A stretch of DNA of 64,000 nucleotides from an uncultured Chloroflexota bacterium. Lineage in GTDB: Bacteria; Chloroflexota; UBA11872. Both the position numbers and the translations under genes were made by a program. Positions 6,164 to 64,000 of the stretch are shown piece by piece. Under the pieces are notes generated by a model. The model was not told where the DNA came from and made no database searches. It saw nothing but the letters and a program-made list of their open reading frames with translations. Numbering within the stretch: position 1 is the stretch's first letter; each line of letters opens with the position of its first letter. The DNA is taken from contig OY282448.1 in the NCBI GenBank assembly GCA_958296175.1, positions 719,899-783,898 of the forward strand. Direction: 5' to 3'.

Positions 6164-8710
6164 ATGACGAAACGACTCGTTCTGGCGGCGGTTGCCGTCG
6201 CCGTGCTTCTGTCTGCCGCGGTCTCCGCCGCCCTGGCGCAGTGGCCCACGACCTGCGTCGAGCTGAACGACCTCGCCGAGGCCGCCGCTGGCAACGTCGA
6301 CAACGTCGGCATCTATCAGCGCACCTACGGCGAACAGGCCGAAGCCGTGTGTCAGGCCGAACACCGCAACGACTTCTTCTTTGGCGCCCGCCCGTTCGCC
6401 ACGCCGCCCAAGACCGACCCGGCCGGCTTCACCCAGGCGTTCGTCGAGCGCGCCATCGACCGTTACAACGCCGACGGCATGCAAGCCGCGATCGACTACT
6501 ACAACGCGCCCGAGAGCATGGACGGGCGCTGGTACGTCTTCATCGTGGACGCCGACGGCGTGACGCGCGCCCACCCGAACCCGGAGATTCGCGGGCGCCG
6601 CGTCACCGACGTGCGCGGCCTGGCCGGTTACCCCAACGGCGCGCTGATCGCGGCCGCCGCCGCCGAGGGCGGCGCCTGGACGTCCGACGTGCTGACGGGC
6701 GCGGACGGCCAGCTGGAAACCAAGCACTACTGGCTCGTGCGCTACGACGGGCTGATCTTCGGCTCCGGCTGGTACGAACCCGGCCCCTCCAAGGCCGACG
6801 ACCCCGCCGCCTACACGCAGACCCTGGTGCAGCGCGCCGTGAGCCTCTACGACGCCGTGGGCCGCGACGAAACCTTCGCCCACTACGGCTCGCCGCAGAG
6901 CGTGGACGGCCCCTGGTACGTCTACGTCGCCGACGCGGAGGGCACGCTGCTGTCGCATCCCATCATGCCGGAGCTGGTGGGCGTCGAGGATCTGCGCGGG
7001 ACGGACGGCTTCCCCATCGCCCGGCAAAGCGCGGCCGCGGCCTCCGAGGACGGAGGCTGGGTGCACTACACCTGGACCAACCCGGAAACGGGCACGGCGC
7101 AGACCAAGCATTCCTGGAACGTCCTTCACGACGGGTTGATCTTCGGGTCGGGCTGGTACGAGCCTGCCCCGACCAAGGACGACCCCGCCGCCTTCACCCA
7201 GGCCTTCGTGCAGCAGGCCGTGAACCTCTACGAGGCCGCGGGCCGCGACGAAGCCTTCGCCTACTACGGCTCGCCGCAGAGCGTGGACGGCCCCTGGTAC
7301 GTCTTCGTCGTCGACGCCGGCGGCGAGCTGCTGGTCCACGCCGCGTCGCCGCAGCTGGTTGGACAAAGCCTGCGCGGCCCGCTGGGCACCGACAGCGCCG
7401 GCTACGCCTTCGGCGCCGACATCCTGGCCGCCGACGAGGCCGGGCGCTGGGTCAGCTACATCTTCGACAACCCCGAAACCGGCCAGGCAGGGCTCAAGCA
7501 TTCCTGGGTCCTGCGCCGCGGCGACCTGATCTTCGGCACCGGCTGGTACGAACCCGTCAGTGACGCCGCAGCCTTCACCCAGTCCTACGTGGCCAAAGCC
7601 GTGCAGGTGCTGGAGACCGACGGGCGCCAGGCCGTGCTCGACTACGCCAACGCGCCGGCCAGCGTGCAGGGACCCTGGTACACCTTCATCATCGACCGGG
7701 CCAGCGGCGCCATCGTGGCGCACGGCACGCGCCCGGAGCGCCTGGGCCGCACGCTGGACATCCTGGTGGATGTCTCCGGCTACCACTACGGCGCGGACTT
7801 CGCGCAAGCCACCGCTCAGGGCCGGTGGGTGGACTACATCTTCCTGAACACCGTGACAGGCGCCTACGAGCAGAAGCACTCGTGGGTGGTCGAACGCGAA
7901 GGCCTGATCATCGGCTCTGGCTGGTACGAACCCATCGACCGCGATGCCGACCCCGCGCGCTTCACCCAGGCGTTCGTGGCCAAGGCCCTGCGGCTGCACG
8001 AGACCGACGGGCGCCAGGCCGCCATCGACTACTACAACGCGCCGGCCAGCGTGCAGGGACCCTGGTACATCTTCATCATCGACAAGGCCAGCGGCGCCAT
8101 CGTGGCGCACGGCACGCGCCCGGAGCGCCTGGGCCGCACGCTGGACATCCTGGTGGATGTCTCCGGCTACCACTACGGCGCGGACTTCGCGCAAGCCACC
8201 GCTCAGGGCCGGTGGGTGGACTACATCTTCCTGAACACCGTGACGGGCGCCTACGAGCAGAAGCACTCGTGGGTGGTCGAACGCGAGGGCCTGATCATCG
8301 GCTCCGGCTGGTACGAACCCATCGACCGCGATGCCGACCCCGCGCGCTTCACCCAGGCGTTCGTGGCCAAGGCCCTGCGGCTGCACGAGACCGACGGGCG
8401 CCAGGCCGCCATCGACTACTACAACACCACCGCGAGCGTGGACGGCCCGTGGTACGTCTTCGTCGCCGACGCCAGCGGAGAGATGCTGGCCCACGCCGTG
8501 TCGCCGCAGCTCATTGGCCAAAGCCTGAGCGGCCCGCTGGGCACCGACAGCACCGGCTACGTCTTCGGCGCCGACATCCTGGCCGCCGACGAAACCGGGC
8601 GCTGGGTCGACTACGTCTTCCTGAACCCCACCACGGGCCAGGAAGGCACCAAGCACTCCTGGGTCGTGCGCCGCGGCGACCTGATCTTCGGCTCGGGGTG
8701 GTACGAGTAA
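6164..8710 (+). CDS. secreted protein with an N-terminal two-Cys module followed by six tandem single-Cache (sCache_2-like) domains
   Basis: ATG 6164 preceded by AGGAGG. Signal peptide MTKRLVLAAVAVAVLLSAAVSAALA. Six repeats of roughly 129 aa, each with YNAPxSVDGPWYVFxxDxxGxxxAHxxxPExxG...GxWVxYxxxNPxTGxxxxKHSWVxxxxGLIFGSGWYEP, which matches the sCache_2 pattern. No TM segment and no output domain. Confidence 0.8.
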   Translation: MTKRLVLAAVAVAVLLSAAVSAALAQWPTTCVELNDLAEAAAGNVDNVGIYQRTYGEQAEAVCQAEHRNDFFFGARPFATPPKTDPAGFTQAFVERAIDRYNADGMQAAIDYYNAPESMDGRWYVFIVDADGVTRAHPNPEIRGRRVTDVRGLAGYPNGALIAAAAAEGGAWTSDVLTGADGQLETKHYWLVRYDGLIFGSGWYEPGPSKADDPAAYTQTLVQRAVSLYDAVGRDETFAHYGSPQSVDGPWYVYVADAEGTLLSHPIMPELVGVEDLRGTDGFPIARQSAAAASEDGGWVHYTWTNPETGTAQTKHSWNVLHDGLIFGSGWYEPAPTKDDPAAFTQAFVQQAVNLYEAAGRDEAFAYYGSPQSVDGPWYVFVVDAGGELLVHAASPQLVGQSLRGPLGTDSAGYAFGADILAADEAGRWVSYIFDNPETGQAGLKHSWVLRRGDLIFGTGWYEPVSDAAAFTQSYVAKAVQVLETDGRQAVLDYANAPASVQGPWYTFIIDRASGAIVAHGTRPERLGRTLDILVDVSGYHYGADFAQATAQGRWVDYIFLNTVTGAYEQKHSWVVEREGLIIGSGWYEPIDRDADPARFTQAFVAKALRLHETDGRQAAIDYYNAPASVQGPWYIFIIDKASGAIVAHGTRPERLGRTLDILVDVSGYHYGADFAQATAQGRWVDYIFLNTVTGAYEQKHSWVVEREGLIIGSGWYEPIDRDADPARFTQAFVAKALRLHETDGRQAAIDYYNTTASVDGPWYVFVADASGEMLAHAVSPQLIGQSLSGPLGTDSTGYVFGADILAADETGRWVDYVFLNPTTGQEGTKHSWVVRRGDLIFGSGWYE
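7651..8424 (+). repeat. near-identical 387-bp tandem duplication inside the sCache gene (two copies, 129 codons each)
   Basis: cgcgccggccagcgtgcagggaccctggtaca begins at 7651 and again at 8038. The copies differ by only a few substitutions across about 387 bp. Confidence 0.85.
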
Positions 8711-49120: not shown

Positions 49121-50791
49121 GTGATTCTCGACCGCGCCGTCGTGTTCGATCTCGAAGCCCGCATGGCGCTGCGCGAGGGCGTGGACCTGGTGGCCGACGC
49201 GGTCAAGGTCACCATGGGCCCCAAGGGGCGGAACGTGGCCTACAAACCCAGCCTGGGGCCGCCCACGCTCACCAACGACGGCGTGACCATCGCGCGCGAC
49301 ATCAAGTTCGAGAACACCTTTCTGCACACCGGCGCGGCCATCGTGTACGAAGCCTGCCGCCAGACCAACACGGTGGCGGGCGACGGCACCACCACCGCGG
49401 CCGTGCTGACCCAGGCGATGTACAGCGAGGCGTTCAGGGCCATCGTGGCGGGCATCAACCCGATGATCATCCGCCGCGGCATGGTGCCGGCGCTGGCCGA
49501 GGCCGAGGAAGCGCTGCGCACGCTGGCCGTGCGGGCCGCCACGCGCCAGGACATTGCCTGGATTGCCGGCATGTCCGCCAACGACCCGCCGGTCGGCGAG
49601 CTGATCGCCGACGTGTTCGAACGCCAGGGACTGGAAGGCGCCGTCTCCGTCGAGGAAGGCAAGAGCCTCAAGACCGAGGTCACCTACGTGGACGGCATGC
49701 GCATCGACCACGGGTTCCTGACGCCGCACTTTGCGAAAGACGAGGCCCAAACCGAAGCGGTGATCGAGAATCCCGACATTCTGATCACGGACCGGAAACT
49801 GGAGCGCCTGCGGGACTTCCTGCCGTTCCTGGAGCGTTACGCCGCCAGCGGCCGCAAGACGCTGGTGATCGTGGCCCAGGAGATCGTCGGCGAGGTGGTC
49901 ACGATGCTGGTGCAAAACCTGCACGCGGGCAACCTGGAGGTGCTGTGCGTCAAGGCGCCGGCCTTCGGCGCGCGGCAGCGGCTGATGCTGGAAGACCTGG
50001 CCGTCTTTACGGGCGGCGTGCTGGTTGGCCACGAGACTGGCGAGCCCTGGCGGGCCATCGGCCTGGACGTGCTGGGCGGCGCCGAGCGCGTGCGCTCGAC
50101 CCGCGACCAGTCGTTCGTGGTCAAGGGCCGCGGCAATCCCGCAGCCATCCAGGAGCGCGTGGAATACATCTGGATGCAGCACGGGCGCATGAAGAACCAC
50201 TTCGACCGTGAAAAGCACCAGGAGCGCGCCAACAACCTGACCGGGTCGTTCGCCGAAATCTGGGTGGGCGCGGCCAGCGCCGTCGAACGGTTCGAGCTGA
50301 AGCACCGCATCGAAGACGCCATCTCAGCCACGCGCGCCGGGCTGGACGAGGGCATCGTGCCCGGCGGCGGCACCGCGCTGGCGCGCGTGTCGCAGGAGAT
50401 TCACGACGACCCCGACCTGCCGCTGGCCGAAGCCGTGGGCCGCCGCGTCGTGCGCGACGCCCTGCGCGTGCCGGCCGAGGTGATTGCCAACAACGGCGGC
50501 TACGACGGGGCCGTGGTGGTGGACGAAATCCTGCAGCGCCGCGGCCGCGAGGGCTTCAACGCCGCCACCGGCGAGTACGAGGACCTGCTTGCGGCCGGCG
50601 TGATCGACCCGCTCAAAGTCACGCGCTCGGCCCTGCGCAACGCCGGCAGCGCGGCGATGATGCTGATTACCTCCGAGGCGGTGGTGGGCGACACGCCGTC
50701 GTTCCACCGCTGGAACGACTATTACCGCGAACGCCTGGCCAAAAAGCACGGCTTCTTCAGCGAAGACCTGGACAACCCCCGCCCAGGCTGA
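49121..50791 (+). CDS. divergent chaperonin GroEL (Cpn60) paralog lacking GGM tail, no adjacent groES
   Basis: GTG 49121 after GAGGAGG. ADAVKVTMGPKGRNV...AGDGTTTAAVL...; ends ...PSFHRWNDYYRERLAKKHGFFSEDLDNPRPG instead of a Gly-Met repeat. Confidence 0.8.
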   Translation: MILDRAVVFDLEARMALREGVDLVADAVKVTMGPKGRNVAYKPSLGPPTLTNDGVTIARDIKFENTFLHTGAAIVYEACRQTNTVAGDGTTTAAVLTQAMYSEAFRAIVAGINPMIIRRGMVPALAEAEEALRTLAVRAATRQDIAWIAGMSANDPPVGELIADVFERQGLEGAVSVEEGKSLKTEVTYVDGMRIDHGFLTPHFAKDEAQTEAVIENPDILITDRKLERLRDFLPFLERYAASGRKTLVIVAQEIVGEVVTMLVQNLHAGNLEVLCVKAPAFGARQRLMLEDLAVFTGGVLVGHETGEPWRAIGLDVLGGAERVRSTRDQSFVVKGRGNPAAIQERVEYIWMQHGRMKNHFDREKHQERANNLTGSFAEIWVGAASAVERFELKHRIEDAISATRAGLDEGIVPGGGTALARVSQEIHDDPDLPLAEAVGRRVVRDALRVPAEVIANNGGYDGAVVVDEILQRRGREGFNAATGEYEDLLAAGVIDPLKVTRSALRNAGSAAMMLITSEAVVGDTPSFHRWNDYYRERLAKKHGFFSEDLDNPRPG

Positions 50792-53233: not shown

Positions 53234-54772
53234 TTACCTCGGCAAGCGGTTGCACTGCTCTTGGTAGCCGGAGCTGGCACGGACCGAGGTCTCGACGGCG
53301 CCGTCGAGCCAATCCGCGTACGCGCTCTCGTGATCGAATTCCAAGTCCGAGGAAGGCCACGGGACGAAGGGGAAGGAGTACCCCAAACCCCAGCGAAAAC
53401 TCGCCCACACCCCTGCCTGAACCCTGTGCGCGAAAATCTCTTCTTGGAAGCACGCTTCCCGTGTGCGCGAGTTCCCCGCATGCCAGCCAAGCGCGTGGTA
53501 AATCTCATGCGCCAGCAACGCAGCCAGCGCTTCCGTCCGCTCCCAGCGCAGGTCGGATCGAACCGCGATCGTGTCGATCGCGGGGACATAGGCCGCAAGG
53601 GTTTCGGGACTCAAGGGGTCGAACACATAGCTGGTCGTTGTCAGCGCGTCGATTACTTTGGCGTATATGGGGTCCACCGTCCGCAGCAACGTCAACGCCG
53701 CCTGCAGGGCCGGGTCGCGGTATCCCCGCGCTTCGATCGTAAACCTGCTGGACACCGGCGGCCCGCCGCCGCGGTCGTTGAACGCCTGGAGCGTGAACGT
53801 GTGCTCGCCGGCGTTCAGGCCCTCGACGCGGACTCCGAAGGCGCCGCCATCCGACCCAACCTCGCCGGAGCGCGGCGTTGCCCCCGAAATGCTCCAGCGG
53901 TAGCCGCGCAGCGGCAAGCCGCCGCCGTCGCTGGGCGGGTCGGCGCGGGCGGTGACGTCGTTGCCGGCTACCGAGACCCGCAGGTTGCGCGGCGCGGTGG
54001 GGGTGCTGGTCGGATCGATCGTGAAGCTGCTGCTGATCGGGGGGCCGTCGCCGCGGTCGTTGAACGCCGCGACTGTGAAGGTGTGCACGCCTGCGTTCAG
54101 GTCGTCGACATAGACGCTGAAGCTGCCGCCGCCGGACGCGACGCTGCCGCCGCGTGACGTGGCGCCGGACACGCTCCAGCGGTAGCCGCGCAGCGGCAAG
54201 CCGCCGCCGTCGCTGGGCGGATCGGCGGCGGTGGTGACGGCGTTGCCGGCTACCGAGACCCGCAGGTTGCGCGGCGCGGTGGGCGCGCCGGTGGCCGGGC
54301 CCACCCAGGCGAAGGCCGCTTGCACGTCGGCGCGGTGGTCGTTTTGGCAGGCTTGTTCCGCCTGCGCGCCGTACGCGCGCTGGTAGATACCGACATTGCC
54401 GTGGTTGCCCAGGTGGGCTTCCACCACGTCGTTGAGAGCCAGGCAGGTGGCGGGCCAGCCGCCGGTGGGCGCGGGGGCAGTGGGCGCGGAACCTGCGCCG
54501 CCAAGCGCCCAGGCAAAAGCGGCCTGCACGTCGGCGCGGTGGTCGTTTTGACAGGCCTGTTCCGCCTGCGCGCCGTACGCGCGCTGGTAGATACCGACAT
54601 TGCCGTGATTGCCCAGGTGGGCTTCCACCACGTCGTTGAGGCCGACGCAGGCGGCGGGCCAGCCGCCGGTTTGTGCGGCCGCCGGTGGCCCTGCAACCAG
54701 CGCGCTTGCCAGCAGCGTCAGCGCCGCAGCTATGCCAAGGGCCGCCGCACGGCGCATCCAGCCCGTTTTCAT
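53234..54772 (-). CDS. secreted protein: two copies of the two-Cys N-terminal module, two fibronectin-III-like domains, C-terminal HExxH (putative zinc metallopeptidase-like) domain
   Basis: Signal peptide MKTGWMRRAAALGIAAALTLLASALVAG. 2x GGWPxxCxxLNDVVEAHLGNHGNVGIYQRAYGAQAEQACQNDHRADVQAAFAW. 2x PTAPRNLRVSVAGN...GYRWS. C-terminus AALLAHEIYHALGWH. Confidence 0.65.
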   Translation of the reverse strand: MKTGWMRRAAALGIAAALTLLASALVAGPPAAAQTGGWPAACVGLNDVVEAHLGNHGNVGIYQRAYGAQAEQACQNDHRADVQAAFAWALGGAGSAPTAPAPTGGWPATCLALNDVVEAHLGNHGNVGIYQRAYGAQAEQACQNDHRADVQAAFAWVGPATGAPTAPRNLRVSVAGNAVTTAADPPSDGGGLPLRGYRWSVSGATSRGGSVASGGGSFSVYVDDLNAGVHTFTVAAFNDRGDGPPISSSFTIDPTSTPTAPRNLRVSVAGNDVTARADPPSDGGGLPLRGYRWSISGATPRSGEVGSDGGAFGVRVEGLNAGEHTFTLQAFNDRGGGPPVSSRFTIEARGYRDPALQAALTLLRTVDPIYAKVIDALTTTSYVFDPLSPETLAAYVPAIDTIAVRSDLRWERTEALAALLAHEIYHALGWHAGNSRTREACFQEEIFAHRVQAGVWASFRWGLGYSFPFVPWPSSDLEFDHESAYADWLDGAVETSVRASSGYQEQCNRLPR

Positions 54773-55619: not shown

Positions 55620-56190
55620 GCGCCGCGGCCTTGCGTTCCGCCTTCGGGGGACCTTTGCGTACTTCCCAGGCGCGGGGGCCGGTGGGGTTGCCGACGTGCA
55701 CGGCCGCCGCCTGTTGCCGTACCTCCCAGGCGCAGGGGACGGTGTCGGCGAACCAATGCCAGCATCGGTGTACCTCGTGCCTGCGGGATTCCGGCGTTCA
55801 CCGGAATGACGGATTCTGCAAAGGTCTCGTCGGGCGCCGCGACCTTTCGGTCGGCCGCGCGGGCACCGCGCGTTTGGAAGCCGCCGTCTGTGGGGCGTAT
55901 GCTTGCTGCACGCACACATTGTGCCTTCGGGGCAGGGTGAGCCTGGCGGTGCCGGGCAATTCCCGACCGGCGGTGAGGCGCATGGCCGAGCCCGCGACCC
56001 GGCGTTTGCCGGTTGATCCGGTGCGAATCCGGAGCCGACGGTACAGTCCGGATGGAAGAAGGCGCCGTGGGCGCGCTCATGCGCGCGCGCCCGTGCCCCG
56101 GCGGCTCACGCGTTGGACGAACACCGTGGCACCCGCCCTGACCGCCATACCCGCCTTCTTCTCGGACGCCGCGCGCCGCTGTGGGGCGCC

Positions 56191-63215: not shown

Positions 63216-63545
63216 GGGCGGGAGCATCGAACCGGGCGGTAAGCCGCATTCTGTCGCGGGCGGCCATCTATCTGGGACCGGCGTTGCCGCCGGCCTCGTG
63301 CGGCCCACCTGGGACTGGGCGAGCAGCCTCGCAGCGTCCCGGCTTGGCCTTGCTTCCGGTAGAGGTTGGCCGTTTCACTCCCGGCGGGGCGCCGGGCATC
63401 GTCACTGTGCCCCTGGTCCGGCCCTTGGCGGCGGGCGGCCGCCTCGGACGGCGGGTGTTACCCGCTACCGTGCTCTGTGAAGTGCGGACTTTCCTCTCGG
63501 GCGGCGGGCCCGAGCGGCCGCCTGCCCGACCCGATGCTCCCGGAG
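63216..63545 (-). ncRNA. rnpB: RNase P RNA (bacterial type A)
   Basis: Minus-strand RNA contains GAGGAAAGUCCGCAC (P4 5' strand), GGUAACACCCGCC, GGAAGCAAGGCCAAG, GACAGAAUGCGGCUUACCG, and a long P1 helix GGGAGCAUCGGGUCGGGC paired with GCCCGGUUCGAUGCUCCC. Confidence 0.85.
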
Positions 63546-63837: not shown

Positions 63838-64000
63838 AAAGGAGGTGATCCAGCCGCAGCTTCCGCTACGGCTACCTTGTTACAACTTCGCCCCAATCGC
63901 CAGCCCCGCCCTCGACGGCTGCTCCCCTTGCGGGTTGGCGCACCGTCTTCAGGTGTTGCCGACTTTCATGGCGTGATGGGCGGTGTGTACAACGCCCGGG
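63838..64000 (-). rRNA. 16S ribosomal RNA, 3' terminal about 160 nt (gene continues beyond window end)
   Basis: Plus strand carries AAGGAGGTGATCCAGCCGCA and GGCTACCTTGTTACAACTT (the 1541R/1492R primer sites), plus GGGCGGTGTGTACAA. This places the 16S 3' end (GGAUCACCUCCUUUCU) on the minus strand ending near 63838. Confidence 0.9.

Follow-up and report, generated by a model that had tools for sequence, protein, structure and literature searches.

How do two otherwise unrelated secreted proteins come to begin with the same small module, and what might that module do? The question is raised by a 64,000-nucleotide stretch of contig OY282448.1 from an uncultured Chloroflexota bacterium (assembly GCA_958296175.1; hereafter, the window), which encodes a protein built of sCache_2 domains (the sCache protein) and a protein with FN3 repeats and a HExxH motif (the FN3/HExxH protein). 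The original prediction, made from the DNA letters, held that both proteins carry a two-cysteine module directly behind the signal peptide, in three copies overall, that this module is not a described domain, and that it points to a common targeting, anchoring or maturation step. We find that the module is a real and previously undescribed domain family that is missing from Pfam and NCBIfam. At a probability of roughly one half, we read it as a lineage-specific, disulfide-stapled docking or retention module of the Sec secretome, which would work in pairs and bind a common partner at the cell surface.

Both genes were confirmed as open reading frames in the window. The sCache gene has a likely start at the ATG at 6164 (plus strand), with a GGAGG 14 nt upstream, and yields an 848-amino-acid product that consists of a 25-residue signal peptide, one module (copy A), and six sCache_2 domains. 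By translation, its Sec-type signal peptide, MTKRLVLAAVAVAVLLSAAVSAALA, spans 6164–6238 (plus strand) with a predicted cleavage at ALA↓Q, and copy A, QWPTTCVELNDLAEAAAGNVDNVGIYQRTYGEQAEAVCQAEHRNDF (QWPTTC...HRNDF), follows at 6239–6376 (plus strand; 78 bits in a match to a hidden Markov model (HMM) of the module). The two cysteine codons of copy A (6254–6256 and 6350–6352) specify the only cysteines of the entire protein. The HMM match stops at position 48 of 58, and the C-terminal helix that usually ends the module ("V..FAWA") is degenerate or lacking; a frameshift as the cause of this odd C-terminus was ruled out on checking the sequence. The FN3/HExxH gene (53234–54772, minus strand; 512-amino-acid product) starts with a 33-residue signal peptide, MKTGWMRRAAALGIAAALTLLASALVAGPPAAA (54674–54772), behind which the first module begins at 54667. 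Its two copies, B1 (54500–54667; 107 bits; cysteine codons 54647–54649 and 54551–54553) and B2 (54302–54463; 105 bits; cysteine codons 54443–54445 and 54347–54349), lie in tandem on the same strand. The four module cysteines of this protein are joined by one further pair.

Copy A is 63.6% identical to B1/B2 over 44 amino acids (tblastn E 4e-17 to 1e-16 within the 64-kb window), and a six-frame HMM scan showed that the window holds exactly these three copies. An apparent fourth copy at 49448–49600 (minus strand) was a weak tblastn match antisense to GroEL and was discarded as spurious, while chance or low-complexity similarity was ruled out by the E value of ~1e-17 in the window together with the 275 clusters described below. 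B1 and B2 are 94% identical in protein and 92.6% in nucleotide sequence across the core, whereas the first and second copies within one protein share a mean of 73% amino acid identity elsewhere in the family. Because their DNA (repeat region 54263–54670, minus strand) is far more alike than that of the tandem copies in other members, it points to a recent internal duplication or gene conversion in the FN3/HExxH gene, with B2 as the recent duplicate of B1.

We ran a profile built from copies A, B1, and B2 against 1.84 billion representative proteins clustered at 50% identity. It retrieved 275 clusters at E ≤ 1e-3, of which 257 reached E ≤ 1e-10; the family has a sharp boundary and no tail of remote relatives. 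None of this corresponded to a known domain: the three copies had no match at E ≤ 1 in Pfam-A 2025 or NCBIfam 20.0, 100 diverse copies searched at E ≤ 10 returned only one to three noise matches (e.g., MvaT_DBD, E 0.067), and literature searches found no description of the module. The taxonomic range was narrow. Among 185,579 species, each represented by one genome, we confirmed 35 loci, all in about 20 metagenome-assembled genomes (MAGs) named "Chloroflexota bacterium"; the scan used just two narrow peptide patterns, which makes ~20 genomes a lower bound. Every named family protein was annotated as coming from a Chloroflexi or Chloroflexota MAG. Within a genome, paralogues are often clustered, as in CBDBOH010000002, where five module genes lie within 16 kb, and the 3,002,743-bp contig of the window carries at least three further members (P0181, P0042, and P0227). 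No relative of the module was found in 2.9 million viral contigs. The window itself is chromosomal rather than part of a mobile element, since it carries ordinary chromosomal features, namely, the 3′ end of a 16S rRNA gene (63838–64000, minus strand), bacterial RNase P RNA (63224–63533, minus strand), GroEL, and tRNAs. A phage-borne cassette was thereby ruled out.

In complete members, the module is always extracytoplasmic. Using a hydropathy heuristic to call signal peptides, we found a signal-peptide-like N-terminus (a basic n-region, a hydrophobic h-region, A-x-A, and no lipobox cysteine) in 235 of 260 proteins. The module stood directly behind such an N-terminus in 207 of the 260; in another 28, the first module lay further in, yet with a signal-peptide-like N-terminus or a miscalled upstream start. 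The remaining proteins were mostly truncated, started inside the module, or were mis-started gene calls. The junctions were of the types ..ALA↓Q, ..VFA↓Q, and ..VSA↓Q, typically A-x-A↓QWPTTC, so that the proteins are predicted from sequence to be exported by Sec and cut at a signal peptidase I-type site; because the A-x-A↓Q junction comes without a lipobox cysteine, they show no lipid anchor.

Two cases depart from this layout and still place the module outside the membrane. In fusions to c-type cytochromes, a signal or anchor helix is followed by the CxxCH motif, a Pro/Thr linker, and two C-terminal modules. P0075 has an inverted topology: an FtsK/SpoIIIE-type ATPase comes first, followed by one transmembrane helix, a long Pro/Thr-rich stretch, several "AAPTEFAAW"-like repeats, and a C-terminal module pair. 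It was ruled out as a cytoplasmic exception, as the transmembrane helix parts the ATPase from the modules, and no cytoplasmic protein carrying the module was found. Thus, a public search with the HMM built from the three copies bore out the suspected link to secretion, while the description of the module as a "leader" stood only for the majority: most proteins carry it N-terminally, but the cytochrome c fusions and P0075 carry a C-terminal pair.

The junction also speaks for a different reading, in which the module is a sorting or maturation tag that is read after Sec by a dedicated machine, for instance, for a second translocation across an outer layer or for a modifying enzyme or protease. 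The A-x-A↓QWPTTC junction of the sCache protein recurs in more than 200 family members, giving a highly stereotyped, exact mature N-terminus, and one tag is common to the whole secretome of a narrow clade. Similarly, LPXTG/sortase, PEP-CTERM/exosortase, and the C-terminal domain (CTD) of the type IX secretion system each mark a large and mixed set of secreted proteins in a restricted lineage. Those tags, however, are C-terminal, LPXTG and PEP-CTERM consist of a short motif plus a transmembrane helix, and each has a known dedicated enzyme, whereas the module is mostly N-terminal, forms a folded domain of 55 residues and not merely a brief motif, frequently occurs in duplicate, and functions just as well when it is placed internally or at the C-terminus; no processing enzyme was found, and there was no conserved processing gene among the neighbors in four genomic contexts. 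We therefore consider a sorting tag very unlikely.

The conservation of the module is high for a family spread over unrelated host proteins: random paralogous copies are ~70% identical. Of 393 unique full-length copies, all but one (392) keep the two cysteines, and the module has no others. W4, P5, D13, Y28, E37, and W54 are ~100% conserved across the 393 copies, and N12, E16, A36, D43, H44, and F52 ~99%. AlphaFold2 (AF2), run on copy A with an alignment of 100 sequences, returned a confident helical hairpin with a predicted local distance difference test score (pLDDT) of 87.5, in which residues 1–6 are coil and helices 7–18 and 26–42 are joined by a short turn. Cys7 marks where helix 1 begins, and the second cysteine, Cys39, falls 11–13 residues into helix 2, close to its matching end. 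Because the model places both cysteines at the same end of the hairpin, a disulfide that closes the open end of this antiparallel hairpin is plausible. More generally, the module is predicted to be a domain of ~55 residues with a Trp-Pro cap, a helix, a loop, and a long helix, to which most copies add a short third helix (F.WA).

The invariant acidic, histidine, and cysteine residues (D13, E16, E37, D43, H44, and C8/C40) could also be taken to bind a metal or to act as a thiol switch, which would make the module a small metal- or cofactor-binding or redox domain. One subfamily (P0023–P0025, P0031, P0034, P0037, P0041, P0050, P0124, and P0125) even carries an additional motif rich in His and Asp (AHEDHS or AHDDHGS), which follows the hydrophobic N-terminus and precedes the module, where it replaces the A-x-A↓Q junction; this motif could be a metal-binding N-terminus or belong to an uncleaved anchor. 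The spacing of the invariant residues, however, matches no known metal site, H18 is dispensable (it is Ala in copy A), and a catalytic or redox role would leave the fusion to many unrelated passengers unexplained. We regard this explanation as highly improbable.

Several observations suggest that modules act in pairs. Two copies were present in 91 of 165 representatives, mostly joined by tandem linkers of 7 to 24 residues, and the first copy usually reads ..ACQNDHR and the second ..ACRNDHR; the tandem arrangement is therefore old. An AF2 model of a tandem, which reached a pLDDT of 87.5 and a predicted template modeling score (pTM) of 0.79 despite the disordered linker, predicts that the copies pack together. 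In seven proteins of the homolog set, the second copy instead lies 158 to 178 residues downstream, in most of them at or near the C-terminus (e.g., P0021 and P0022, ~300 amino acids).

Pairing also bears on the only sequence lead to a known structure. When the 100-sequence profile was searched against all Protein Data Bank (PDB) sequences, the single lead was Arc of phage P22: single-chain Arc (pArc) scored E 0.0083, Arc 0.2 to 0.4, and a second Arc-family protein (9pio_G) 0.42, and a pairwise hhalign comparison gave a probability of 86% over 32 columns, with the pattern WP..L..V.E..G...N..IYQRV. The alignment joins a WP-helix-loop-IYQRV-helix pattern with matching helix boundaries, and both are units that work, or in the module may work, as pairs. 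Arc, however, binds DNA in the cytoplasm and begins with a beta-ribbon, whereas the module follows a signal peptide or is located on the outer side of a transmembrane helix, has a putative disulfide and a longer second helix, and lacks the N-terminal strand of ribbon-helix-helix (RHH) proteins in both AF2 models (by DSSP, only coil precedes helix 1 and all other structure is helical). No Pfam RHH family was matched by the 100 copies at E ≤ 10, and Foldseek against the PDB and BFVD found neither Arc nor any other similar fold. Because the database-wide E value is marginal, no beta-ribbon is predicted, no fold match was obtained, and the location is wrong, we treat Arc as a lead and not as evidence of membership. 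The proposal of a known domain was rejected against Pfam and NCBIfam, with the PDB sequences yielding only this weak lead. If the similarity were true, it would represent an unusual reuse of a DNA-binding fold outside the cell.

The module could be a pure oligomerization domain, possibly an exapted Arc-like RHH relative, that dimerizes its passenger or closes the chain on itself with no external partner. The predicted packing of tandem copies, the proteins with one N-terminal and one distant copy, and the fact that Arc is an obligate dimer all speak for this idea. Yet a bare dimerizer would need neither ~70% identity nor a dozen invariant polar residues across paralogs, and freely pairing single copies would produce random heterodimers among dozens of secreted proteins; for the Arc fold in particular, the missing strand and the empty Foldseek and Pfam RHH searches count against it. 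In our judgment, oligomerization as the whole function is quite unlikely.

The passengers attached to the module are of more than 15 unrelated types. Among 120 best hits, about 29 were trypsin-like proteases and about 23 RCC1 propellers, some of them joined to a protease, followed by cytochrome c (14), PD40/DPPIV-N propellers (8), and BNR/sortilin (8); leucine-rich repeat (LRR), ankyrin, FN3, SNase, PQQ, PLD, Excalibur+DUF1524, CarboxypepD_reg, and DUF2927 domains also occurred. The Cache passenger was found in the window, and for many other family proteins Pfam recognized no passenger domain. In the 25 residues that follow the module, Pro (17%), Thr (10%), Ser (9%), and Ala (15%) are frequent, as compared to 5.8, 6.5, 7.6, and 9.5% in the rest of the same proteins, consistent with a flexible linker. 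Eukaryote-like repeat proteins in this clade share a Sec signal and one conserved domain with proteases, cytochromes, and sensors, which makes the module a sequence marker for the surface or secreted proteome of the clade; as a new family, it could annotate several hundred "hypothetical" proteins.

This mixture of passengers, together with the origin of the genomes, allows yet another reading. The isolate names RHO/COS and SB06xx match sponge MAG sets (PMC8163846; PMC7883664), from which we infer, for several of the MAGs, an association with sponges. Ankyrin, LRR, WD40-like/PD40, RCC1, and FN3 classes are reported to be enriched in sponge symbionts, and most sponge MAGs lack classical or otherwise specialized secretion systems (PMC8163846). 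The module could then be a host-directed adhesion or delivery tag that binds a component of the sponge matrix or cell surface and places effector-like proteins (ankyrin, LRR, RCC1, WD40-like, sortilin-like, and FN3) on or in the host. The restriction of the family to Chloroflexota MAGs, several of them from sponge sets, and the many passengers that belong to the eukaryote-like repeat classes agree with this proposal. The module itself, however, falls outside the eukaryote-like repeat classes, and its fusion partners also include proteins that act at the bacterial surface, namely, housekeeping ones such as c-type cytochromes, the Cache array, and many trypsin-like proteases, as well as the FtsK-like membrane protein with its external tail; moreover, the searches revealed no resemblance to known adhesin or lectin domains. 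We consider host adhesion unlikely.

The docking or retention reading, to which we return, accounts most simply for the whole set of fusions and would bring these observations together as follows. Sec would export the protein, and signal peptidase I would cut at A-x-A↓Q, such that the module mostly becomes the mature N-terminus, after which the disulfide would lock the helical hairpin. The working unit would be a module pair, formed by tandem copies, by two copies placed at the N- and C-terminal ends of the same chain, or, presumably, by a homodimer of single-copy proteins. Such a paired unit would display a conserved polar surface (N12, D13, E16, Q29, R30, E37, D43, H44, and D47) that could dock to one shared surface partner, e.g., a wall polymer, a surface layer, or a scaffold protein, while the flexible Pro/Thr/Ser/Ala linker would keep the variable passenger near the cell. 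Docking of this kind fits both proteins that should stay near the cell (cytochrome c, proteases, and Cache) and proteins that may be displayed (repeat proteins and FN3).

By analogy, the module appears functionally closest to SLH, LysM, and CW_binding anchors and to dockerins; it belongs to none of these families, as shown by the failure of the profile comparisons. SLH (PF00395), LysM, CW_binding, and PG_binding_1 are likewise short modules of ~45 to 60 residues that are often in tandem, stand after a signal peptide or at the C-terminus of many unrelated secreted proteins, and are followed by flexible linkers; in single-membrane bacteria, they keep Sec-exported proteins on the cell surface where neither a lipid nor a transmembrane anchor is present. 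The module differs in that it has no profile similarity to them, carries an invariant cysteine pair, and is confined to one Chloroflexota clade; its binding to an envelope polymer is putative. Dockerins of the cellulosome are small duplicated helical modules on many secreted enzymes as well, which dock to one common partner, but they consist of Ca-binding F-hand repeats, mostly sit at the C-terminus, and have cohesins as their known receptors. The module showed no Ca-loop motifs and no Pfam match to dockerin (PF00404); a cohesin-like partner was not looked for genome-wide.

A number of points weigh against the docking or retention reading. Searches of Pfam, NCBIfam, and the PDB and searches with Foldseek linked the module, by homology or by fold, to none of the known anchoring or docking domains. 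No candidate receptor was identified, and in the four contexts no recurrent partner gene stood beside the module genes. An uncleaved N-terminal helix may already hold the cytochrome c fusions, and P0075 is anchored in the membrane in any case, so that retention cannot be the sole role of the module. The packing between modules is a prediction of the structural model, and the envelope type (membrane, wall, or S-layer) on which a partner might reside is hinted at only by a single Mur-ligase-family gene of a related genome. Common anchoring or targeting, as originally proposed, emerged as the best-supported reading, from which we infer the docking function and its partner.

A wider form of the same idea, which we offer tentatively and think unlikely, is that the module is an address label for the entire host-facing secretome of a sponge-symbiont Chloroflexota clade. 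Its fold would be either one with no detected relative or an RHH relative recruited outside the cell, and a single receptor would serve as the docking site for surface enzymes and for eukaryote-like proteins such as those with ankyrin, LRR, or RCC1 domains. If true, this would explain how such proteins are displayed or delivered without type III, IV, or VI secretion, and the label would provide a single bait for finding the receptor. In any event, the family is relevant to the question of how eukaryote-like proteins are exported or displayed by sponge symbionts that lack classical secretion systems (PMC8163846), and the module pair offers a small, foldable bait for pulling down a common partner.

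Further features of the two window proteins concern their passengers. Behind copy A, a linker and six tandem sCache_2 domains occupy 6377–8710 (plus strand; Pfam E 1.6e-50 in six stretches), with no transmembrane or output domain; a secreted six-Cache array of this kind is unusual for Cache. Within it, Tandem Repeats Finder (TRF) reported a 387-nt tandem duplication (2.3 copies, 94% identity, 7573–8461, plus strand), which is a recent amplification of one Cache domain. Behind B2, TRF and Pfam delineated a Pro/Thr/Ala linker, two FN3 domains, and a C-terminal HExxH domain (53234–54301, minus strand), with a Pfam fn3 match at E 4.4e-6, a weak zincin-like match, and the motif HEIYH at 53495–53509 (minus strand). 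The FN3 pair corresponds to a 282-nt tandem repeat with 82% identity (53733–54283, minus strand). Homologs of the FN3/HExxH protein aligned near full length (P0027 and P0169) or over 79% (P0168). Both products, of 848 and 512 amino acids, are present exactly in a public protein collection; the 90%-identity cluster of the latter is represented by an unrelated 51-amino-acid Cytobacillus protein (P0264), which looks like a database artifact.

The cytochrome c fusions end in a conserved tail of 15 to 20 residues, ..SSAVGLP[LP]STDE.., after the second module (P0219, P0222, P0224, P0238, P0247, P0248, P0252, and relatives; L041, 8001–8897), and the L041 gene lies outside any respiratory operon. A search with the cytochrome c domain alone for homologs without the module returned only two frameshifted gene calls.

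In three unrelated module genes from different samples, with RCC1, ankyrin, and trypsin-RCC1 passengers, an in-frame TAG occurs at one same codon (L001, 6196–6198; L039, 3196–3198; L040, 2969–2971; a further site in L001 is 7021–7023). It replaces the CAG of the conserved Gln right after the second cysteine (TGC-CAG to TGC-TAG), and the frame stays open for hundreds of codons beyond; in L001, a Trp position is likewise occupied by a TGA. Programmed recoding at this recurrent TAG was unsupported, given that ~95 modules from unbiased loci contained 0 stops, and the TAG cases are probably recent nonsense alleles that were noticed through short gene calls. Elsewhere in the window, positions 55919–56067 (plus strand) form a flavin mononucleotide (FMN) riboswitch.

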